Shown here in pieces: positions 1 through 59,552 of a stretch of DNA of 64,000 nucleotides; position 1 is the stretch's first letter; every line of letters begins with the position of its first letter. Under the pieces are notes generated by a model. It did not search any database, had not been told where the DNA came from, and saw only the letters and a list, made by a program, of their open reading frames with translations. The DNA lies in the sequence record ON528736; one strand, written 5' to 3'. The DNA comes from Shigella phage ESh26. The translations under genes and the position numbers were made by a program.

Positions 1-541
1 AATTATCAGTCTGTTCATCATGTTTATCAATTATATTTAAAAACGAATCAAGCAAGATAAACGTCTCAAACGAAATTATATTCGATTGAAGTAGTTTAAA
101 AATATAACTTGATTGAACTTTTGGATTATACTCAAAGATTTCTTTAAAAGCAGAAACTTCAACTTTTTTACTAAAATAATAAATGTTGCGAATATCTTCT
201 TCAAACTTAAATTTAATTTGCTTTAAGCGTCCGATATATTCACGATAAAACACAAGTGCATCAGCGTCAGAGATGTCACCAATCCAAGCATCTTGGTTAG
301 CAACAAGATTGCTTATAAAGATTAAAGCAAGTTCCTTTAATTTATATTTTTCTGATAACTTCTGGAAAAAATACTTATCCCTTCGCTTTTGATAAGCGGC
401 ATCAGACACCCGCATGCACCAATTATACTTAATTACATCATACTTTCCATTCATATGTTGTTTTATCATTAAGTATAATTTATAAACTGATTTACCATCA
501 ATGTATCTTTCACCACCAGCAGGCATGCGGAGTTTAATCAT
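1..541 (-). CDS. 59: Helicase-loading protein gp59, N-terminal part (3' end lies beyond window start)
   Basis: Reverse complement of 520-541 reads MIKLRMPAGGERYIDGK...; frame stays open to position 1; ATG overlaps gp33 stop (ATGA); synteny 32-59-33. Confidence 0.85.
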   Translation of the reverse strand, partial: MIKLRMPAGGERYIDGKSVYKLYLMIKQHMNGKYDVIKYNWCMRVSDAAYQKRRDKYFFQKLSEKYKLKELALIFISNLVANQDAWIGDISDADALVFYREYIGRLKQIKFKFEEDIRNIYYFSKKVEVSAFKEIFEYNPKVQSSYIFKLLQSNIISFETFILLDSFLNIIDKHDEQTDN

Positions 542-6031: not shown

Positions 6032-7147
6032 ATGGAAAAATTTATGGCAGAGTTTGGACAAGGATATGTCCAAACGCCATTTTTATCGGAAAGTAATTCA
6101 GTAAGATATAAAATAAGTATAGCGGGTTCTTGCCCGCTTTCTACGGCAGGACCATACGTTAAATTTCAGGATAATCCTGTTGGAAGTCAAACATTTAGCG
6201 CAGGACTTCATCTAAGAGTTTTTGACCCTTCCACCGGAGCATTAGTTGATAGTAAGTCATATGCTTTTTCTACTTCAAATGATACTACATCGGCTGCTTT
6301 TGTTAGTTTCATGAATTCTTTGACGAATAACAGACTTGTTGCTATATTAACTAGCGGAAAGGTTAATTTTCCTCCTGAAGTAGTATCTTGGTTAAGAACC
6401 GCAGGAACGTCTGCTTTTCCATCTGATTCTTTGCTGTCAAGATTTGACGTATCATATGCTGCTTTTTACACTTCTTCTAAAAGAGCTATTGCATTAGAAC
6501 ACGTTAAACTAAGTAATAGAAAAAGCACAGATGATTATCAAACTATTTTAGATGTTGTATTTGACAGTTTAGAAGACGTTGGAGCTACCGGGTTTCCAAG
6601 AAGAACATATGAAAGCGTTGAGCAATTTATGTCGGCAGTTGGCGGAACTAATAACGAAATTGCACGTCTACCAACTTCAGCTGCGATAAGTAAATTATCT
6701 GACTATAATTTAATCCCTGGTGATGTTCTTTATCTTAAAGCACAGTTATATGCTGATGCCGATTTACTTGCGCTTGGAACTACAAATATATCTATCCGTT
6801 TTTATAATGCATCGAATGGATATATTTCCTCGACACAAGCTGAGTTTACCGGGCAAGCTGGGTCTTGGGAATTAAAGGAAGATTATGTGGTTGTTCCAGA
6901 AAACGCTGTCGGATTTACGATATATGCACAAAGAACAGCACAAGCTGGCCAAGGTGGCATGAGAAGTTTAAGCTTTTCTGAAGTGTCAAGAAATGGAGGT
7001 ATTTCGAAACCCGCTGAATTTGGCGTCAATGGCATTCGTGTTAATTATATCTGTGAATCTGCTTCACCTCCGGATATAATGGTACTTCCTACACAAGCAT
7101 CGTCTAAAACTGGTAAAGTGTTTGGGCAAGAATTTAGAGAAGTATAA
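6032..7147 (+). CDS. 35: Long tail fibre hinge connector gp35
   Basis: 371-aa ORF immediately after gene 34 (9-nt gap); size as T4 gp35; synteny. Confidence 0.9.
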   Translation: MEKFMAEFGQGYVQTPFLSESNSVRYKISIAGSCPLSTAGPYVKFQDNPVGSQTFSAGLHLRVFDPSTGALVDSKSYAFSTSNDTTSAAFVSFMNSLTNNRLVAILTSGKVNFPPEVVSWLRTAGTSAFPSDSLLSRFDVSYAAFYTSSKRAIALEHVKLSNRKSTDDYQTILDVVFDSLEDVGATGFPRRTYESVEQFMSAVGGTNNEIARLPTSAAISKLSDYNLIPGDVLYLKAQLYADADLLALGTTNISIRFYNASNGYISSTQAEFTGQAGSWELKEDYVVVPENAVGFTIYAQRTAQAGQGGMRSLSFSEVSRNGGISKPAEFGVNGIRVNYICESASPPDIMVLPTQASSKTGKVFGQEFREV

Positions 7148-16003: not shown

Positions 16004-16044
16004 TTTCTAATCTCCGTAATTCTGTATCAGTAGTTGATAGTTGT

Positions 16045-16074
16045 ATAGTACCACAGTATGCTTTGGTTGTAAAC
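16045..16074 (-). promoter_or_regulatory. Early promoter of motA (cassette copy A)
   Basis: Minus strand GTTTAC-18 nt-TGG-TACTAT, A/T-rich upstream element, 5'UTR caactatcaactactgatacag shared with other copies. Confidence 0.7.
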
Positions 16075-16098
16075 CGTTTTGTGAAAAAATTTTTGAAA

Positions 16099-19596: not shown

Positions 19597-19803
19597 TCAA
19601 TAATCTGCTAAAAGATTGACGATTGCATCACGAAGACACTTATTCGCAATACGTTTAAGAGCAATTTCAGTTTCTGGAGCATTTTGAATAATCATTGAAT
19701 TCAATTCAGCCTCAGCAAACTGAAGTTCTTTAACTAATTCAGCTTTATATTTTCCTTGCCCTTTCTTAGCTTTTGCTCGTTTTAATTCAGCTGTAGTAAA
19801 CAT
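19597..19803 (-). CDS. Hypothetical protein (68 aa; denB-downstream)
   Basis: Track ORF 19597..19911 begins at TTG inside the UTR; ATG at 19803 (MFTTAELKRAKAKKGQGKYK...) follows the cassette SD ggagaataaa. Confidence 0.5.
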   Translation of the reverse strand: MFTTAELKRAKAKKGQGKYKAELVKELQFAEAELNSMIIQNAPETEIALKRIANKCLRDAIVNLLADY

Positions 19804-19844
19804 TTTATTCTCCAAATCCGTATCAGTTGATAGTTGATAGTTGT

Positions 19845-19874
19845 ATAGTACCACAGTCCTTGTGGTATGTAAAC
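19845..19874 (-). promoter_or_regulatory. Early promoter (cassette copy B)
   Basis: Minus strand GTTTAC-18 nt-TGG-TACTAT; promoter and UTR near-identical to copy at 46920-46983. Confidence 0.65.
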
Positions 19875-19892
19875 CGTTTTGTGAAAATTTTT

Positions 19893-20450
19893 TTAAATGG
19901 AAAGATACCATCCGTTGTAGTTGCTTTTTCTTACAACCTTACGAAGGTCTTCTCTATCACCGATGAACTTCGGAGTGTACTGGATGACACCTGGGTGAAT
20001 TTCTTTAGTGTTGAATATAATTATACAGTCAGCGACCTGATGATTCAGAATGGGCCCTAGATTTATTCCAGAACCGTATGGATACTCTCCGCTGCATCCT
20101 GTTGTTACAGAAATCCAACGTGAGTCAGTTTGATGTGTCTTAACTTCTACACGAAGCCCGCAGTATCTTGGATGCGCCAATACATCCCATGCGTATGTAT
20201 ACGGGTCATTAACATCCTCTTGGCCTTTGTTAACATACCCGCTTAGCCAATCTGCTACAAAAAACTCTGCGTACACCGCGATACGACATCTTTCGATAAC
20301 TTCTGCTTTATCCTGGTTCGGGTTTTGTTTTAAAGAGTATCTTGCTGTATCAGCAATTTTGACCTTCATTTCACTAGTCAAGTCACTGTTCGATAGGGTA
20401 AATGTCGGAATCTGAAATAGTCTCTGTAAACCCGGATTCGTTTTCTGCAT
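19893..20450 (-). CDS. denB: Endonuclease IV (DenB), cytosine-DNA-specific
   Basis: 185-aa ORF MQKTNPGLQRLFQIPTFTLSNSDLTSEMKVKIAD... recognised as T4 DenB. Confidence 0.9.
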   Translation of the reverse strand: MQKTNPGLQRLFQIPTFTLSNSDLTSEMKVKIADTARYSLKQNPNQDKAEVIERCRIAVYAEFFVADWLSGYVNKGQEDVNDPYTYAWDVLAHPRYCGLRVEVKTHQTDSRWISVTTGCSGEYPYGSGINLGPILNHQVADCIIIFNTKEIHPGVIQYTPKFIGDREDLRKVVRKSNYNGWYLSI

Positions 20451-27074: not shown

Positions 27075-27494
27075 TTATTCCTTAAAGTGTGCTTTCAACA
27101 TCTGATACAAGGACCATGCCTGTTCATTATTTTCAATAGTAACTTTCATGACAGGAAATGCTGTGAAATCTTCTATTTGTTCTTGCTCTTCCTGCTCTTG
27201 CTCTTCAGCTGCCTGATATGGATTTTCAACTTCATCAAAGAACTCAGCTTCGTTAGTAGAAAGCCAGATAAAGTTTTCATCAAGGATATCACCATGTTTT
27301 GCATATCCAATTGTGCCAGTAAATGACATAATTTTAGTAGGACGCCCAAGATAATCAGCATCTAAAATTTTAAAAGGATGCATACCTAAACGGCGCGCAT
27401 AGATTCCATTATCAGTATGGTCTTTAATAAAATTTTCTTGAGCTTGTTTATTTTTAAATTGATACCATTTATTAACTTCAAATTTAATAGCCAT
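27075..27494 (-). CDS. Hypothetical acidic protein (139 aa; goF position)
   Basis: ORF with poly-Glu/Gln stretch [12 protein letters not shown]. Confidence 0.5.
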
Positions 27495-27709
27495 TAATAA
27501 ATTTCCTTCCAGTAAGTTGTGCCATCTTCAGTAATTTCACGGAATACACCGTAAATTGGTTGTTTATCGCCGACTTTCTCATACACATAAACCGAAGTCA
27601 AGTGAGTAAACTTAACAGTATGTTCCTTTTGAACTACTACCAAATCTGGATCGAATAATACATCTTCAAATTCATCATTAGTGCAATTCTGAACAATTTT
27701 GCGTTTCAT
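27494..27709 (-). CDS. Hypothetical protein (71 aa; cef position)
   Basis: 71-aa ORF; T4 cef is about this size at this position, identity not verified. Confidence 0.45.
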
Positions 27710-27722
27710 TACAATTTCCTCA

Positions 27723-27992
27723 TTAATTGAACAGTGGAGCGATGCGTTTCAGAAGAGTAGCAGCACCTTTGGCGAATTTTACATCATGAAAAACAGTTTC
27801 TTCTTCCGTTACAACACGAGCTTTAATGTTTTCACAATCCCAATTTTTACGAACAATCTTCAAAAGCTGCAGTAAATCTTTACATTCAGCAATATCGATA
27901 ACACATCCACGAGAATCTTCCATTATCGCACGATAACCGTAAGCCATACCATAATCGTTGAAAGATTGTTCGATGATAATTAAGTTTTCCAT
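27723..27992 (-). CDS. Hypothetical protein (89 aa)
   Basis: Track ORF starts at TTG inside UTR; ATG at 27992 follows cassette SD ggagaataaa (MENLIIIEQSFNDYG...). Confidence 0.5.
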   Translation of the reverse strand: MENLIIIEQSFNDYGMAYGYRAIMEDSRGCVIDIAECKDLLQLLKIVRKNWDCENIKARVVTEEETVFHDVKFAKGAATLLKRIAPLFN

Positions 27993-28035
27993 TTTATTCT
28001 CCAAGTTGTTTTCTGTATCAGTAGTTGATATTGAT

Positions 28036-28065
28036 ATAGTACCATAATCAACTACTGATGTATAT
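28036..28065 (-). promoter_or_regulatory. Early promoter (cassette copy D) with -10 inside a 13-bp inverted repeat
   Basis: TGG-TACTAT extended -10, degenerate -35 (ATATAC), A/T-rich upstream; flanked by atcagtagttgat (28017-28029) and atcaactactgat (28047-28059). Confidence 0.55.
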
Positions 28066-28089
28066 AGTTTTATGAAAAAATTTTAAACT

Positions 28090-28587
28090 TTATGCACAGC
28101 GAGCTTTGCTATAGTGTTTAATCCAACTTTCAGGAATGACTTTGTATGTTCCTAAAAATACCGCGTTGTACAACTTAACGCCATCTTCTACCCACTGATC
28201 GGTAATGTATGCACACATAGCGCGAGTACGATGTTTTTGAACAACACCTTCCTCATCTTCAGTAAATTCGAATTCATAAGGAGCAACGAACTTAATAGCT
28301 TGACCGAGTTTCCACTTAAAGTCTACGCCTACATGCGAAGTATCAATCGTTTCAATTCCTTTAGCAGGAACAGCTTTCAAAAACGCAGACTCAAGAAATT
28401 TCGCACGAACATAGCCAAACTGAGGTTTAGACTTTCCATCTTTAGGAATGATACGCACTTTTACTTCAGAATCTTCATCTTTAACACCGTGTTTAAGCTG
28501 AATGCTTACAATTTCAACCAATTTTCCTGCTGCTTTAGAGCGGGATTTATCAGATACACGAGCTAATTCACCAATATTAATAATCAT
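28090..28587 (-). CDS. Hypothetical protein (165 aa; motB position), paralogue of 28664..29206
   Basis: C-terminal motif YITDQWVEDGVKLYNAVFLGTYKVIPESW shared with the next ORF. Confidence 0.5.
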   Translation of the reverse strand: MIINIGELARVSDKSRSKAAGKLVEIVSIQLKHGVKDEDSEVKVRIIPKDGKSKPQFGYVRAKFLESAFLKAVPAKGIETIDTSHVGVDFKWKLGQAIKFVAPYEFEFTEDEEGVVQKHRTRAMCAYITDQWVEDGVKLYNAVFLGTYKVIPESWIKHYSKARCA

Positions 28588-28663
28588 AGTTATCTCTCAC
28601 TTGTTAAAAAGATTTTATACTCCACAGGACCATTATACTCTGGTCCCAAGAGTTTGTAAACTA

Positions 28664-29206
28664 TTAATTCAAAATAGCTACCACTGCACTACGAGGTACT
28701 ACACTAAAATCACCCGCATGAACAACGTTCAGAAGTTCAACACCATCTTCAATCCACTGGTCTGTTACCCAACCACAGACCGAAATAAATGGGGTCTTGA
28801 TAGCTACAGCACGAGTTAGAAGGTCAGTAGGATCGCATTCTTGGAAGAGGATAAGCTCTGCTTCAAAGACTATAGTTTTAATTACTTCATCATTATCTAA
28901 GCGTTGTGCTCGAATCACGTAAGCTTTATTCTTATCATGCCAATTACTTTTTGAAAAACTTTTAACCACAAACTCGCCTTCACCCAAAACACTGGTCAAT
29001 GCTTTATAACCCAAACTTAGTTCAGTAGTTTTAATTTCAGTTTCAACCAGTTTGTAGGTTTTGCCAATTTCGATGGTCCGAGCAGTCATAAAGGTTTCCT
29101 TAATTTCTAATGGTTTAACAAGAGTGCCGTACATGCTTGCTATATCCATATCAAATATTTTATCTATAGGATTTGGGGTGTATTCAGGATTATAATTAAA
29201 TTTCAT
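28664..29206 (-). CDS. Hypothetical protein (180 aa), paralogue of 28090..28587
   Basis: C-terminal WVTDQWIEDGVELLNVVHAGDFSVVPRSA matches the motif of the neighbour. Confidence 0.5.
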   Translation of the reverse strand: MKFNYNPEYTPNPIDKIFDMDIASMYGTLVKPLEIKETFMTARTIEIGKTYKLVETEIKTTELSLGYKALTSVLGEGEFVVKSFSKSNWHDKNKAYVIRAQRLDNDEVIKTIVFEAELILFQECDPTDLLTRAVAIKTPFISVCGWVTDQWIEDGVELLNVVHAGDFSVVPRSAVVAILN

Positions 29207-29208
29207 AA

Positions 29209-29721
29209 TTATCTCATTTCAATAAAATCTACAAGTTCAGCATGGGATTTGCGGAACATTACTTGGTGTCCGCCAATGATAACTTCATCTTCAGGAACTT
29301 CATAAATCGCAATGTACATTCCACGATCTTTTAAGTCTTCACGCTCTTCTCGGGTGAACCATCTCATCATATCATATTCATTAGCGAAAGCAAAATGATA
29401 TAATGAAATAAGCCACAATGGAATATAATTTTCAAATTGTGAATAATCTTTATTCCATTTAGTTTTAATAGCATCATTAGCATTTTCAACTAATAACTTA
29501 TCATCATGCGGAATAGGAATACTTTCATGGCTTTCATAATTATCGCTATGATGATGAAATGATGATGAATTAATACCACAAAATTTTAGCCAGGTTCGAG
29601 TTTTCATAGAATCAAATCCACGGTAAGGAGTTGATTGAACGCATAACTCTTGCCTAATTTTCACTATACCACTATCATCATTTAATGCGCTAAACGATGA
29701 TTCAACACGATAAATTTTCAT
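29209..29721 (-). CDS. Hypothetical protein (170 aa)
   Basis: Track ORF 29209..29760; ATG at 29721 (MKIYRVESSF...) sits downstream of early promoter. Confidence 0.5.
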   Translation of the reverse strand: MKIYRVESSFSALNDDSGIVKIRQELCVQSTPYRGFDSMKTRTWLKFCGINSSSFHHHSDNYESHESIPIPHDDKLLVENANDAIKTKWNKDYSQFENYIPLWLISLYHFAFANEYDMMRWFTREEREDLKDRGMYIAIYEVPEDEVIIGGHQVMFRKSHAELVDFIEMR

Positions 29722-29748
29722 TTTATTATCCTCAGTAGCTATGGTGTT

Positions 29749-29778
29749 ATAATACCACAACTAACCGAGGAAGTAAAC
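29749..29778 (-). promoter_or_regulatory. T4-type early promoter
   Basis: Minus strand GTTTAC-18 nt-TGG-TATTAT between dexA stop and next ORF. Confidence 0.6.
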
Positions 29779-29784
29779 AACTTT

Positions 29785-30468
29785 TTATCGTTTTGTTGGA
29801 AGAGAAAGAGGATCGCACTCTTCCTCTGACGGAGCATCTTCAAGACCCATAGCATATCGCAAAGCATACTTCATCATCAGGATGTCTTTCGCGCAGTCAT
29901 GAATAGAATCATGTGCAACGAATCCATCTAAAGTTCCCTTTGGAAGAGGACACGTGGTCATATCACGAACAAGCAGAAGTGCTTCAATTCTGGTACGAAT
30001 ATCACGCTGATTCCAGAATTTACAAGGTTCTAACTTAAACGTATCAAGCTCATTCTCAGATACACCATTGAGACGCTGAATATCGCGAATGAGATCAACT
30101 AAAATAGGAAAATCAAACGACATTCCACGGCACCAGCCTTGAGATTTCCAAGGATCGATGTTATGTGCATTGATGTAATCATTAAATTTTGCAATACCAT
30201 CGATAGTGCTTACATCTTCATCTGATGGTGCAATATTTTTTCGAGCTTCAGGAGATTGATTTTTCCACCATTCGATAGTGCTTTTAGTAAAAAGACGATG
30301 TCCTTTTTGGCTTTTTAAATCAAACTTGATTTTAATGCCGCGTGAAACTAATTCATCAAATGTTTCAACTACTTCCGGATTAGGGTCAAAGGCAATAACA
30401 GCCAAATCAATAACAGCTGCCTTTTCACCGCTTCCCATTGTTTCAAAATCTATAATAAAATCAAACAT
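29785..30468 (-). CDS. dexA: Exonuclease A (DEDDh 3'-5' exonuclease)
   Basis: 227-aa ORF MFDFIIDFETMGSGEKAAVIDLAV... with D-x-E exonuclease motif; size as T4 DexA. Confidence 0.9.
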   Translation of the reverse strand: MFDFIIDFETMGSGEKAAVIDLAVIAFDPNPEVVETFDELVSRGIKIKFDLKSQKGHRLFTKSTIEWWKNQSPEARKNIAPSDEDVSTIDGIAKFNDYINAHNIDPWKSQGWCRGMSFDFPILVDLIRDIQRLNGVSENELDTFKLEPCKFWNQRDIRTRIEALLLVRDMTTCPLPKGTLDGFVAHDSIHDCAKDILMMKYALRYAMGLEDAPSEEECDPLSLPTKR

Positions 30469-34295: not shown

Positions 34296-34915
34296 TCAAC
34301 TACCTCAATATCATACACTTTAAATGTTCCAAATGAATCGTGTAATTTTTCTTTTGAAATAGAAGTTATTTTATACTTTCCAATTGGAATCATCCATTCT
34401 TGTTCACGTACAATCATCATTAAGTTATCAGTACGTTCTGAATCTAATCCATCAGTATCTTCATATGTATACTTAAACTCAGTATTAGGAGAAGAAAGTA
34501 TAATATCGCTGATATGGTCAGAATAATTAAAAGCTTTATCAGTTTTTAAGCGAAATATTATTTCAGTGAAATATTCGGCATAAGAAAAAGAACACGCTGT
34601 ATGCAAACTAGTAGTAAATGAATCTACTCTGTTCGTTGAAAACACTTCTCCAACTTGTAAATCTTTAATGAGTTCTTTTGTCGATTTTGATATACCACGA
34701 TATAGCTGATAAGGCGATTTAGTTAAATGCTTTTTAACGATTTTATTCAACTGCTGATGAAGAGCTTCATTCTTTTTGGCTTCCATACATTGCCAAAGAA
34801 TTGACTGTTCAAAGTCAGTAAATTTTTCACAGACCTTTTTATACATATCATATTGAAAATCGACACTTTCAGCTTTTATAGATAATTGTTCAACATCTGC
34901 AAGATTAATAATCAT
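34292..34915 (-). CDS. modB: ModB ADP-ribosyltransferase
   Basis: 207-aa ORF; stop overlaps modA start; shares fold-level motifs with modA. Confidence 0.8.
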   Translation of the reverse strand: MIINLADVEQLSIKAESVDFQYDMYKKVCEKFTDFEQSILWQCMEAKKNEALHQQLNKIVKKHLTKSPYQLYRGISKSTKELIKDLQVGEVFSTNRVDSFTTSLHTACSFSYAEYFTEIIFRLKTDKAFNYSDHISDIILSSPNTEFKYTYEDTDGLDSERTDNLMMIVREQEWMIPIGKYKITSISKEKLHDSFGTFKVYDIEVVE

Positions 34916-34941
34916 GATAGCCTCCGTATACTTCAGAAGCT

Positions 34942-34971
34942 ATCATATCATTGTTAGGAAGGAAAGTAAAC
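34942..34971 (-). promoter_or_regulatory. T4-type early promoter upstream of modB
   Basis: Minus strand GTTTAC-18 nt-TGA-TATGAT. Confidence 0.6.
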
Positions 34972-37110: not shown

Positions 37111-37356
37111 TTATTCACCAGTTACTTTCCACAAATCTTCGTTTGCAGTAATCCATTCAGTACGTTGATTTTCTTCATATACTGTAGAATATGCTGCTTT
37201 TTCTGAAGGGAATGTCTGGTAATGAGCGCCAGAAATTTTGTGAACGTCAGAATAAAGAGGGAAAGCTACAGAAATTTCCTTTCCTTCAATTTTCTTATTT
37301 CCATCTAATTTTTGCTCAAATGTTTTAATATTAACATAACCGCGAGTACTAGCCAT
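37111..37356 (-). CDS. soc: Small outer capsid protein Soc
   Basis: 81-aa ORF MASTRGYVNIKTFEQKLDGNKKIEGKEISVAFPLYSDVHKISGAHYQTF... recognised as T4 Soc. Confidence 0.92.
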   Translation of the reverse strand: MASTRGYVNIKTFEQKLDGNKKIEGKEISVAFPLYSDVHKISGAHYQTFPSEKAAYSTVYEENQRTEWITANEDLWKVTGE

Positions 37357-37372
37357 GTAATTCTCCTTTTAT

Positions 37373-37582
37373 TTAAATTACATGACTATTTATAATAAAT
37401 TCTTGCGGAACGTTAAAATACCCAATTTTAGTTAATATAACAACATCACCGTTAATAATTACCGGAGAATAATCGGCTGGAGCATTAAACTTCCAATGGG
37501 CTCTAATATTATATCCATCAGAACCAAATGCTCGACTAGCCGGTCTCCCGGCTTTTTGCCATGCATAAAAATCAAATTTCAT
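37373..37582 (-). CDS. Hypothetical protein (69 aa)
   Basis: ORF between soc and 56, where T4 carries gene 69/segF (from memory). Confidence 0.4.
   Translation of the reverse strand: MKFDFYAWQKAGRPASRAFGSDGYNIRAHWKFNAPADYSPVIINGDVVILTKIGYFNVPQEFIINSHVI
37387..37394 (-). promoter_or_regulatory. Late promoter (TATAAATA) for soc
   Basis: Plus-strand tatttata is TATAAATA on the minus strand, 30 nt upstream of soc ATG. Confidence 0.7.
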
Positions 37583-40392: not shown

Positions 40393-40685
40393 TATTCACC
40401 TACCACTTCAGCGATGATATTTTTATTATTAAAGTTTTTATCGCAATACAGAACATAATTATACTGCATTACACCACCAGACTTAAGCTGTTTTTGCACT
40501 TCAGCTTTCATTTCAGGACGATCACGCTCAACAATATTCATAATATCTGCTTCAATTTGAGTTTCAACTTCAGTCTGATCTGCAGTCATAGACCATTCAC
40601 ACAAATCTTTGTCATAACCCGCCATAGCAGGCTGAGCAGCACAAGAAGATAAAGCAAAAATTATAGCAAAGATAAATTTTTTCAT
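40392..40685 (-). CDS. Putative secreted/periplasmic protein (97 aa)
   Basis: N-terminal signal peptide MKKFIFAIIFALSSCAAQPAMA. Confidence 0.5.
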   Translation of the reverse strand: MKKFIFAIIFALSSCAAQPAMAGYDKDLCEWSMTADQTEVETQIEADIMNIVERDRPEMKAEVQKQLKSGGVMQYNYVLYCDKNFNNKNIIAEVVGE

Positions 40686-40745
40686 GATAATCTCCTCAGT
40701 AGTTTATGTTTATATAGTATCTCAATTTCCAATAAAAGTAAACAG

Positions 40746-41045
40746 CTATTTTAAAACTTCTGCATAATCACATGTTACAAACTGTTTCTCTAACTTGACG
40801 ATTTTACGAAAGTATCTTTTGCATTGGCGAATCTGTCGCTTCGTAGGGCGCACAGCAAACTTAATAAATTCCACTCGACCAAATGGAGGACTTTCTTCTG
40901 CTGGAATATCTAATACCAATTCCCACGTATCTGCGATAAGTGCTTTGAATTGAGTATTTTTCCTGACGTTATACGGTGTAGGTTTAAATAAAACAATATG
41001 CATATTATCCTCGGCAATCCACTTCGCATACTTTCTTGTCATCAA
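40746..41045 (-). CDS. Hypothetical protein (99 aa)
   Basis: ORF. Confidence 0.5.
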   Translation of the reverse strand: MMTRKYAKWIAEDNMHIVLFKPTPYNVRKNTQFKALIADTWELVLDIPAEESPPFGRVEFIKFAVRPTKRQIRQCKRYFRKIVKLEKQFVTCDYAEVLK

Positions 41046-41187
41046 TGAAAGCTTTAACTAGCGCTTTATTAACTTCAGCATATTGAGTAGTAGCCCATTG
41101 AACGTCATCTTTCATCATTGTGATTTCTTTAGTAAACATGCTTTCGTTCTTAAACCACCCCATAAAAACTACCTTTACCAATTCCAT
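41005..41187 (-). CDS. Hypothetical protein (60 aa)
   Basis: ORF with GAGGAG SD downstream of early promoter. Confidence 0.4.
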   Translation of the reverse strand: MELVKVVFMGWFKNESMFTKEITMMKDDVQWATTQYAEVNKALVKAFIDDKKVCEVDCRG

Positions 41188-41216
41188 AAAAATCTCCTCA
41201 TTTAACCAACAAGACT

Positions 41217-41246
41217 ACTATACCATAGTCTTGTCGGCTTGTAAAC
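41217..41246 (-). promoter_or_regulatory. T4-type early promoter; -10 lies inside an 8-bp inverted repeat; -35 overlaps gene 41 stop
   Basis: Minus strand GTTTAC-18 nt-TGG-TATAGT; inverted repeat caagacta (41210-41217) / tagtcttg (41226-41233). Confidence 0.6.
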
Positions 41247-42673
41247 TAAAATTTTAATTCATTTGCCAAAGCATCTAACTGAGCTCGAGCGGATTCGTTT
41301 CTTTGATAGCGATTCTGTTCAGCCTGAATCTGCTGTGAACCTGCTACTTCGTTCACTTCGGTTGGAGTAGAATCTTGCTCAATTTCTACCCATTTCTGAT
41401 TTCCTTTTTGAACACCCATCAAAAACTTATTCCATTTATTCTTATCACCGTATCGTGATTTGATTTGCTTAATGAGTTGTTGTTCAGCAGCTGCTAGCTC
41501 CTCGGTTTCAATGACCGCAAGCATAAAATCAGCTGTTGCTGGAAGACCGGCAGATTCTGCAATATCGCTCATGTTAACATCAGAAGAGTCCCAAGCTTGC
41601 TTACCAACCTGTGCTGCAGTCCAAAGAACAGTTTCGGTTTCAACAGCCAGAGCACGCAATTCCTCTGCGATAGCTTTAACAGTCGTGTAACTATTTTCTG
41701 AATAAACTCTGATGCGGCAAGATTTACAAATACCCAGATAGTCAACAATAATGATTGTTGGAACAAAATTCTTCTTGAGCTTTAATTCATTTAAAAGCGA
41801 CCGAAATGTATTAGCGTCTGCTCCACCAGTAGGATATTGCTTAACGATTAAACGACCGAGAGTAGATTTCTCACGCCATTTTTCCATTTTTCCTTTATAC
41901 TCAGCGTAAGAAATATGCCCATCATCAATGTCATCAAGGGAAACATCAAGCATATTAGCATCAATACGTTTAGCACAAACTTCTTCTGCCATTTCCATGG
42001 AAATGTAAAGAACATTGTGTCCGAGCTGCAAATAATCTGCTGCCAATGAACACAATCCTAATGACTTGCCAACGTTAACACCGGCCATTAAAACGTTCAG
42101 TGTTCCAGTTTCAGCTCCGCCTTTAGTAATTTTATTTAGAATTTTGAGTTTAAATGGAACCTTACGAGCTTTATTCATATAAGATAGCCAACGTGCTTCG
42201 TAGTCATCCATCCAATCATGACCAACGTAACTATCAAATGAAATTGATAATGCTTGGCGCATGATGTCAGGAATAGCACCAACATCCGGCATTTTCTTAT
42301 TTCGTTTTTCTGGAGGAAGCTCAGCATTAGTTTGAATTTCAATTATTTTAGACGTAGCATTAAACATCGCCCTTTGCTGAACATATTTTTCTGTTTCTTT
42401 TACTAACCAGCTGTGGTCTTCTGGAGAATCGGCTAGTTTCGAAATAAGTGTTTTTACACCAGAATATTCTGTTTCAGTAAATGAACTATTTTCTAATGCA
42501 ACATTTAACGCATTAATAGATGGAACGCTATGGTATTCATTAACATGAGATTTAATTAATTTGAATGTATTTTTAGCTGGACCACTTTCAAAATATTCTG
42601 AATCCATATATGGCCAAACTTTTGAAAAATAAGCTTGATCAAATATGAGATGAGAAAGAATAATTTCTACCAC
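41246..42673 (-). CDS. 41: Replicative DNA helicase gp41 (DnaB-like)
   Basis: 475-aa ORF, Walker A GVNVGKS; size as T4 gp41. Confidence 0.92.
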   Translation of the reverse strand: MVEIILSHLIFDQAYFSKVWPYMDSEYFESGPAKNTFKLIKSHVNEYHSVPSINALNVALENSSFTETEYSGVKTLISKLADSPEDHSWLVKETEKYVQQRAMFNATSKIIEIQTNAELPPEKRNKKMPDVGAIPDIMRQALSISFDSYVGHDWMDDYEARWLSYMNKARKVPFKLKILNKITKGGAETGTLNVLMAGVNVGKSLGLCSLAADYLQLGHNVLYISMEMAEEVCAKRIDANMLDVSLDDIDDGHISYAEYKGKMEKWREKSTLGRLIVKQYPTGGADANTFRSLLNELKLKKNFVPTIIIVDYLGICKSCRIRVYSENSYTTVKAIAEELRALAVETETVLWTAAQVGKQAWDSSDVNMSDIAESAGLPATADFMLAVIETEELAAAEQQLIKQIKSRYGDKNKWNKFLMGVQKGNQKWVEIEQDSTPTEVNEVAGSQQIQAEQNRYQRNESARAQLDALANELKF

Positions 42674-46661: not shown

Positions 46662-46919
46662 TCAAATACAAGCAGTAATTACTCCAGTAGTGCTTACACA
46701 GGTATTACCTAATTGAACACCAAGCGTTCCATTAGTATTCATATGAAGATTATCATCAATTTTTGTTGATACTTTACCATTCATGTGAATAACAGTATTA
46801 GATTCAATCACATTCTGAGTGTCATTTTCAATATCAATAAATGGAACAGCTGCTAATGCAACTAGAACAACTGCTAATGCAACTAAACACGCTGCTAAAC
46901 AACCATAAACAATTTTCAT
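46662..46919 (-). CDS. Hypothetical membrane/secreted protein (85 aa)
   Basis: Track ORF starts upstream inside UTR; ATG at 46919 follows cassette SD ggagaataaa; MKIVYGCLAACLVALAVVLVALAAV... Confidence 0.5.
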   Translation of the reverse strand: MKIVYGCLAACLVALAVVLVALAAVPFIDIENDTQNVIESNTVIHMNGKVSTKIDDNLHMNTNGTLGVQLGNTCVSTTGVITACI

Positions 46920-46953
46920 TTTATTCTCCAAATCCGTATCAGTTGATAGTTGT

Positions 46954-46983
46954 ATAGTACCATGGAAGAACAGAGATGTAAAC
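46954..46983 (-). promoter_or_regulatory. Early promoter (cassette copy C)
   Basis: Minus strand GTTTAC-18 nt-TGG-TACTAT; UTR identical to copy B apart from a 7-nt duplication. Confidence 0.65.
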
Positions 46984-47065
46984 CGTTTTGTGAAAAAATT
47001 TTTAATGAATTTACAGGACCTAGAATCATCTATTTTTCCTAAGTATAGATTTATATTACTTGTAT

Positions 47066-59474: not shown

Positions 59475-59552
59475 TTTCACCTCTTAGCTCAATTCATAGA
59501 TCTATTATATCATAATATTTGAAGATCTATCTTAAAGCATAGAGGATATCAG

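Follow-up and report, generated by a model that had tools for sequence, protein, structure and literature searches.

Two intergenic elements in a T4-like phage genome, one between motB and an 89-aa ORF (site 1) and the other between gene 41 and dmd (site 2), are probably composite cassettes of the promoter-early stem-loop (PeSL) type, in which a hairpin formed by read-through RNA would insulate adjacent cistrons and an embedded promoter would restart expression at the next gene. The window that we analysed, a stretch of 64,000 nucleotides from Shigella phage ESh26 (ON528736), comes from a Tequatrovirus (T4-like) genome, in which the early genes are encoded by the minus strand. Over the 2.5 kb surrounding site 1, identity with many Tequatrovirus genomes (Escherichia and Shigella phages) is 93-96%, and the area is the counterpart of the goF-cef-motB region of phage T4.

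PeSLs were described in phages phi1 and RB49 as ~100-nt intergenic cassettes containing an A/T-rich tract, a sigma-70-type early promoter, a stem-loop, an SD and an ATG (Arbiol 2010, PMC2839356). The class was extended to the PST/T4 and nt-1/KVP40 phages, with the consensus TTTACW-N17-TAYWAT and more variable, AT-rich stems in the PST/T4 group (Comeau 2014, PMC4122927). By sequence match, sites 1 and 2 appear to fall in this class of T4-like elements, which is already known. What they add to it, namely the lack of U tracts, a bias of G·U pairs to the sense strand and compensatory change, points to insulation at the RNA level over classical termination or a cruciform.

Anatomy of the two sites

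A sequence-only reading of the window had placed a 13-bp perfect inverted repeat around the -10 of a promoter at site 1, and direct reading confirmed its coordinates exactly: ATCAGTAGTTGAT at 28017-28029 is followed, after a spacer of 17 nt, by its exact reverse complement ATCAACTACTGAT at 28047-28059 (Table 1). On the minus strand the element reads TAA-AGTTTAAAATTTTTTCATAAAAC-TATACA-TCAGTAGTTGATTATGG-TACTAT-ATCAAT-ATCAACTACTGAT-ACAGAAAACAACTT-GGAG-AATAAA-ATG, and TGG-TACTAT does lie in the spacer of the repeat on that strand, as had been proposed; the promoter itself we infer from its paralogy with the motA-type early promoter cassette. Its -10 is identical to that of the motA paralog, and the last A of its -35 is also the first base of the hairpin 5' arm. 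A Dhakavirus-like ortholog has the same hexamers, TATACA-N17-TACTAT. The promoter was missed by a generic sigma-70 scan because only 8 of 12 consensus positions are matched, the -35 being weak, and it differs by one mismatch from the published PST/T4 consensus. If transcription starts about 7 nt past the -10, +1 would fall at about 28029, and the promoter's own transcript would therefore lack the 5' arm and retain the 3' arm.

At site 2, the 8-bp arms reported earlier (41210-41217 and 41226-41233) were correct as far as they went, but the perfect repeat is really 9 bp long (41209-41217 and 41226-41234). On the sense strand it extends to a 15-bp stem including three G·U pairs. The -10 of the promoter, TTTACA-N17-(TGG)TATAGT, is found at 41222->41217, in the loop and with one base overlapping the 3' arm. 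In Yersinia phage fPS-2 the homologue of this site carries the annotation 'predicted early promoter', as do the two neighbours of site 1; an equivalent of site 1 is absent from the predicted early promoters of that phage, and the GenBank records of T4 are without promoter or terminator features.

Table 1. Features of the two sites, their neighbouring genes and two related elements.
Feature	Position	Strand	Remarks
Cef	27494-27709	-	Minus-strand gene context; ORF assignment
89-aa ORF, function unknown	27723..27992	-	phrog_3720; downstream of the putative site-1 promoter
SD GGAG (28002-27999) and ATG (27992-27990) of the 89-aa ORF	27990..28002	-	3' end of the site-1 cassette
Site-1 3' arm, ATCAACTACTGAT	28017..28029	-	Within the leader conserved among paralogous early promoters
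Site-1 putative extended -10, TGG-TACTAT	28036..28044	-	Apical part of the hairpin; hexamer 28041->28036
Site-1 5' arm, ATCAGTAGTTGAT on the minus strand	28047..28059	-	Most of the promoter spacer; unique to the locus
Site-1 putative -35, TATACA	28059..28064	-	5/6 matches to the PST/T4 PeSL consensus TTTACW (PMC4122927)
motB stop codon (28092-28090) and A/T-rich UP-like tract AAGTTTAAAATTTTTTCATAAAAC into the -35	28060..28092	-	From reading of the sequence
motB	28090..28587	-	PF17613, E = 2e-99; upstream of site 1; its read-through RNA would carry the whole hairpin
motB promoter element	28626..28660	-	TTTACA-N17-TATAAT, -10 in the loop of GGGACCA/TGGTCCT; z = -4.55
Third consecutive element	29729..29777	-	TTTACT-N17-(TGG)TATTAT, -10 in the loop of a 17-bp hairpin; z = -7.3
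dmd	41005-41187	-	phrog_2102 Dmd, E = 3e-39; SD GAGGAG at 41199-41194
Site-2 hairpin	41204..41239	-	5' arm 41239-41225, loop 41224-41219, 3' arm 41218-41204
Site-2 -35, TTTACA	41240..41245	-	Directly past the gene 41 TAG
gene 41 (helicase) stop codon TAG	41248-41246	-	Upstream of site 2

The paralogous early promoters (16 kb, 19.8 kb and 46.9 kb) have the UP-like tract of site 1 as well. Among relatives, the T-run within it (28066-28080) varies from 5 to about 13 T, and the hairpin is invariant. A Pfam domain was not found in the 89-aa ORF (27723-27992).

The hairpins are not expected by chance

Perfect inverted repeats of at least 13 bp with loops of 3-40 nt were counted in the window and in 200 dinucleotide shuffles of it. 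Two were observed against a mean of 0.105 per shuffle, and two or more occurred in 0.5% of the shuffles. Repeats of at least 8 bp numbered 84, compared with 52 +/- 5 in shuffled sequence, and the 8-9 bp repeat at site 2 is therefore not significant on its own; it is the extended hairpin that is significant (z = -6.4, with 15 pairs enclosing the -10 in the promoter segment).

Folding supported the proposal that read-through transcripts would form hairpins at both sites. For site 1, the read-through RNA had a predicted energy of -20.4 kcal/mol (z = -4.0; 0 of 200 shuffles equally stable), and the promoter segment gave z = -6.1 with 17 pairs enclosing the -10. An inner 5-bp helix, UGGUA/UAUCA, lengthens the hairpin, and the minimum free energy (MFE) fold contains a weak outer helix, UUUUUCA/UGGAGAA, contributing ~3 kcal/mol extra. 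Folded as single-stranded DNA, the two strands of site 1 gave -11.5 and -10.9 kcal/mol. The corresponding RNA hairpin at site 2 had an energy of -21.8 kcal/mol. The accompanying idea that such a hairpin 'sequesters' the promoter region is meaningless at the RNA level, where the read-through hairpin would hide the leader.

The architecture recurs in the window

Thirteen strict matches to the early promoter were found in non-coding DNA, and in four of these, at 28036, 28632, 29749 and 41217, a hairpin encloses the -10 (z about -4.5 to -7.3), the stem sequences being unrelated to one another. A fifth match has its SD and ATG under a hairpin. Of the four, three occupy successive intergenic gaps around motB (27993-28089, 28588-28663 and 29722-29784). 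Perfect repeats of at least 8 bp were 2.8-fold enriched in the non-coding 4.7% of the window, where they consist of terminators with UUCG loops and of long-loop repeats bracketing a -10 or an SD. An analogous arrangement is seen at a middle promoter (59475-59552), in which a MotA box, TGCTTTA, is accompanied by a -10, TATAAT, bracketed by the 8-bp repeat ATAGATCT/AGATCTAT; this element resembles the 'PmSL' described for phage nt-1. Two further intergenic repeats, at 34914-34946 and 37354-37384, have their 3' arm over the downstream SD and start codon and are candidate translational hairpins of the gene e type.

Site 1 also belongs to a family of paralogous early-promoter cassettes, present four times in direct orientation (16020-16093, 19801-19893, 27990-28089 and 46917-47002) and composed of AAAATTTTTTCAcAAAAC, GGTTTACA, N17, TGGTACTATACAACTATCAACTACTGATAC and then TTGGAGAATAAAATG. 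The four share identical stretches of 30-35 nt, and TTGGAGAATAAAATG, with which the site-1 cassette ends, recurs at 19801-19815 and 46917-46931. The copy at 16.0 kb is the motA promoter. All four share the leader, and only the site-1 copy has a spacer complementary to it. Copies of the cassette are also present in Mosigvirus genomes. Classic GC-rich terminators with UUCG loops are found elsewhere in the genome, often directly before a promoter, as at motA, where the promoter is preceded by GGGAGAGCC-TCGG-GGCTCTCCC-T7.

Conservation and strand bias of pairing

T4 has a site-1 element identical at every base, located at about 6582-6624 of T4 with its arms at 6612-6624 and 6582-6594. The 103-nt element was at least 99% identical in 363 of 535 records, the surrounding 2.5 kb being mostly 80-95% identical. 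A metagenome scan for site 1 returned 36 loci, about 10 of them true orthologs, and the arms were invariant in all of these; in a scan of viral contigs, the 14-mer of the loop retrieved mostly unrelated contigs, and longer patterns retrieved ~6 T4-like contigs per site. Over all the orthologs retrieved (T4, RB51, IMG/VR and metagenome contigs), the only change in the arms was one A>G giving a U·G pair, and covariation at site 1 was not found among them. Since the arms are invariant, the argument for a structure here rests on the frozen spacer as against the polymorphic leader just downstream, and on the comparison across genera.

In Dhakavirus-like genomes, the region downstream of motB contains TATACA or TGTACA, N17, and TACTAT or TAAGAT, and here it is a different hairpin, (A)TAGGGTA/TACCCTA(T) (ATAGGGTA/TACCCTAT for Dhakavirus), whose loop holds the -10. 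The Mosigvirus counterpart, GTTTAC-N17-TATTAT, has its -10 in the loop of CTCCTCTGGTT/AACCAGAGGAG, and the SD is part of its 3' arm. All that is left at the locus in Gaprivervirus and a Yersinia phage is a hairpin, GATAGGG/CCCTATC. In the hairpin of the adjacent motB promoter, the 6-bp core around TATAAT was paired in 41 of 41 cells, representing 7 distinct sequences, and three of the six pairs showed double (compensatory) changes across genera, whereas slid controls paired at 17-54%. In the dmd hairpin, all four variable stem positions within Tequatrovirus keep pairing in the sense RNA (C-G>U·G, G·U>A-U, G·U>G-C and A-U>G·U), a result for which we estimate a chance of ~1 in 4 and which is only consistent with retention of pairing.

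Pairing was also asymmetric between the strands. The sense RNA was more stable than the antisense RNA in 10 of 13 hairpins, by 5-9 kcal/mol at four sites in the window, and across the 13 hairpins 14 G·U pairs fell on the sense strand against 5 on the antisense strand. Such a bias speaks for action within the sense transcript, although formally the folding of the non-template DNA strand would account for it too. Taken together with stems that differ or are compensated across genera, the bias points to selection on the structure of the read-through RNA and not on a cruciform or a protein operator. An Rfam covariance-model search of 27500-30000 gave no match at E <= 1.

Breakpoints and gene content around the cassettes

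Gene content changes at the edges of site 1. Compared with the window, RB51 is 98.8% identical from 28096 downstream and ~70% identical or unalignable upstream, where it has a ~70%-identical motB allele and an extra motB-like gene. In RB51 (604-1506 of record L139) and at two Mosigvirus loci, the single T4-type motB is replaced by a divergent motB, with about 45% aa identity, and a second motB-like gene behind it that is shorter; the junction in RB51 repeats GCATAAA. At the other edge, T4 and many relatives have a deletion of 27785-27984, 200 nt internal to the 89-aa ORF and beginning 8 nt past its ATG. T4 (record L001, about 1950-2070) keeps the promoter, the SD, the ATG, these 8 nt and then the last ~60 nt of the ORF, and several junction variants of this deletion are present among metagenome contigs. 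The T4 junction, GGAAAA|TTCGC, has 4-5 nt of microhomology and lies inside the ORF, and the deletion looks like an ordinary microhomology-mediated event. In Dhakavirus, Gaprivervirus and a Yersinia phage, cef directly follows motB. Farther upstream, 28777-29220 encodes a 180-aa ORF (phrog_2333) whose C-terminus is MotB-like; T4 has the 119-aa motB.1 in its place, and homology to T4 resumes ~110 nt inside the 3' end of the 180-aa ORF.

The gene after gene 41 differs in each genus examined. Behind gene 41, a canonical terminator and then a separate promoter are found in Mosigvirus and Dhakavirus, and the fused hairpin-promoter in Tequatrovirus, which suggests that the fused element is a more compact way of doing the same job.

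The comparison of gene content among related phages was thus positive in a limited sense, with a swap in RB51, a deletion in T4 and a variable gene after gene 41. Mosaic breakpoints lie at both edges of site 1 (28096 and 27984) and none lies in the stem. Breakpoints at the edges of a conserved cassette fit, as an association only, the 'conserved linker' idea, under which PeSLs were proposed to serve modular shuffling (PMC2839356, PMC4122927).

Relation to known hairpin and promoter elements

The features by which PeSLs are recognised were found at both sites: an early promoter with an A/T tract by sequence match (TTTACA-N17-TATAGT at site 2 and TATACA-N17-TACTAT at site 1, both with TGn); a stable stem-loop overlapping the promoter boxes; a location between genes, with the downstream gene's SD and start codon at its end; a ~100-nt motif that is repeated and clustered in hyperplastic regions (four cassettes; three consecutive gaps); and indels or replacements between close relatives, with junctions at the cassette edges. 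The position of the stem-loop in PeSLs is flexible, being between -35 and -10, over either box, or up- or downstream (PMC2839356). A figure legend places the stem-loops of the PST type just upstream of the promoter (PMC4122927), unlike the bracketing of the -10 seen here, a layout that is documented for phi1/RB49 (PMC2839356). The stems also differ. Those of phi1/RB49 are G-rich/C-rich, whereas the stems here are AT-rich and without a U tract. Promoter activity was demonstrated for phi1 PeSLs, and one phi1 stem-loop cut downstream lacZ expression as strongly as rrnB T1 (PMC2839356).

Like intrinsic terminators, the hairpins stand at the end of the upstream cistron, directly before a promoter that would restart transcription. 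The canonical terminators of the window have a GC-rich stem, a UUCG loop and a T tract, none of which is present at sites 1 and 2. Site 1 continues past its stem with ACAGAAAAC and site 2 with AAATGAGG; there is no U tract in either, and neither hairpin is therefore a canonical terminator. Scanning 27600-30000 and 40600-41600 gave 0 terminator-like sites. For these AT-rich stems, termination as part of the PeSL model is thus only putative. The suggestion of a combined promoter and terminator or processing site that may also be a recombination point, made in the sequence-only reading, is essentially the published PeSL model and is partly supported, though not as a canonical terminator. A literature search for genome-wide mapping of T4 5' and 3' ends at these loci found nothing usable.

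REP-type intercistronic hairpins in E. coli operons are stable structures without a U tract that could stall 3' exonucleases and uncouple the decay of adjoining cistrons. The hairpins at sites 1 and 2, which likewise lack a U tract and stand at the 3' end of an upstream cistron, resemble such barriers; REP elements are not embedded in promoters, whereas these hairpins are.

In T4 itself, genes e, soc, 49 and I-TevI have a promoter inside hairpin-encoding DNA, an arrangement that serves translational control (PMC3014915). As predicted for sites 1 and 2, the read-through RNA folds, and the 5' arm is missing from RNA started at the internal promoter. However, those promoters are late or middle and the helix hides the SD or AUG, whereas here the promoters are early and the SD is outside the helix at both sites. 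Pairing of the SD or AUG in the main read-through helix was found in the Mosigvirus counterpart and at neither of the two sites.

Proposed mechanism

Each site may be regarded as an 'uber' early promoter (a UP-like A/T tract, -35, TGn and -10) whose spacer is complementary to the stretch that the promoter itself transcribes first. RNA reading through from motB or gene 41 would contain both arms and would form a hairpin of -20 to -22 kcal/mol at the end of the cistron, whereas transcripts from the embedded promoter would start at or inside the 3' arm and remain unfolded. The hairpin could attenuate read-through, or stop 3'-to-5' exonucleases once the downstream leader has been cut, for instance at a RegB-type GGAG, or both. 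As an exonuclease barrier it would protect the upstream cistron, and the local promoter would then re-initiate for the next gene. Insulation acting on read-through RNA is favoured by the absence of a U tract and of a terminator-like site, by the presence of textbook terminators elsewhere, and by the fused form at gene 41. The ~100-nt cassette may in addition serve as a passive homology patch for the exchange of modules, because it is highly conserved and repeated in the genome. If this is correct, the cassettes would be where expression units, and likewise the exchangeable modules of T4-like genomes, naturally begin and end, which matters for annotation and engineering, and they would mark places where phage engineers can insert or remove genes without disturbing the neighbours.

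Alternative explanations

The hairpin in read-through RNA could instead lower translation of the downstream ORF, such that only promoter-proximal transcripts would be translated well, as in the e, soc, 49 and I-TevI type of control. This is a known paradigm in T4 (PMC3014915); the SD lies inside the Mosigvirus 3' arm, AACCAGAGGAG, and the hairpin at 34914-34946 covers an SD and ATG. The site-2 hairpin does stop only 4 nt ahead of GAGGAG, but its MFE structure leaves the SD and AUG unpaired. The SD of site 1 is 14 nt beyond the 3' arm and outside the main helix, and the weak outer helix that would reach it is worth ~3 kcal/mol and is formed with a T-run of polymorphic length. Translational control would apply clearly to the Mosigvirus counterpart, and at sites 1 and 2 it can only be partial at most; as the principal explanation of these two sites we regard it as unlikely.

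A more speculative thought, to which we would give little credence, is that hairpins bracketing a -10 tell transcripts apart by their origin. The site-1 spacer is antisense to an early-mRNA leader, CAACUAUCAACUACUGAUAC, which is common to the motA promoter and at least two other early promoters; this leader would be masked in RNA derived from upstream and free in RNA started locally, and the two populations of RNA would then differ in translation or in RegB- or RNase E-dependent decay. It is even less likely that the non-template DNA strand folds and presents the -10 as single-stranded DNA, with which the G·U bias would be equally compatible.

Insulation by read-through RNA is also to be weighed against a recombination site at the DNA level, with a cruciform or hairpin DNA as the target of the recombination machinery and the overlap with a promoter incidental. 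The papers on PeSLs propose recombination and the formation of mini-circles between them. The cassette is present four times in direct orientation with its identical stretches of 30-35 nt, and mosaic breakpoints are found at 28096 and 27984. Against this, the breakpoints are at the cassette edges and not in the stems, and the T4 junction is inside the ORF with a microhomology of only 4-5 nt. The stems differ between loci, and there is therefore no common recognition sequence. Loops of 6-17 nt disfavour the extrusion of a cruciform. The loops here are in this range, and the hairpins are asymmetric between strands, with G·U pairs on the sense strand that become C·A on the other. The cruciform raised in the sequence-only reading does not fit these properties; of the recombination site suggested with it, the shift in gene content and mosaicism at the edges of the element stands. 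We consider a dedicated recombination site improbable.

An operator for a dimeric repressor over the -10, bound by the product of the downstream ORF or by a MotB-like protein, has in its favour the perfect 13-bp half-sites centred 30 bp apart (about three helical turns) on either side of the -10, their invariance in hundreds of genomes, and neighbouring genes annotated as transcriptional regulators. However, the other repeats that bracket a -10 are unrelated in sequence, and other genera keep the structure and not the sequence, so that a recurring half-site conserved as sequence is lacking; compensatory changes and the G·U bias are properties of pairing and not of duplex recognition. The 3' half-site is the leader of paralogous promoters that have no 5' half-site, and the element is intact in T4 and others in which the downstream ORF, which has no Pfam domain, is destroyed. 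We therefore hold an operator to be very improbable, and autoregulation by the 89-aa ORF was rejected, since its product lacks a DNA-binding domain and the element survives in genomes that have lost the ORF.

It is just as hard to credit that the repeat has no function and is a neutral accident, for instance a quasipalindrome-templated copy of the leader into the spacer, kept by conservation of the promoter region. The absence of covariation at site 1 and the origin of the 3' arm in a pre-existing conserved leader would agree with such an accident. A spacer sequence is normally under weak constraint, but this one is invariant, as opposed to the polymorphic leader just downstream. The chance expectation is 0.1 per window, other genera have a different hairpin at the same place, and the architecture recurs, with compensatory change nearby. 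A replication origin was discarded, as none is described at either site and a review places oriA near soc.

The only other 13-bp perfect repeat in the window (421-433 and 468-480, in the region 380-545) is inside gene 59, which encodes the helicase loader on the minus strand. A second repeat, CCGCATGC/GCATGCGG, encloses it, and the sense RNA folds at -39.6 kcal/mol compared with -31.1 kcal/mol for the antisense RNA.
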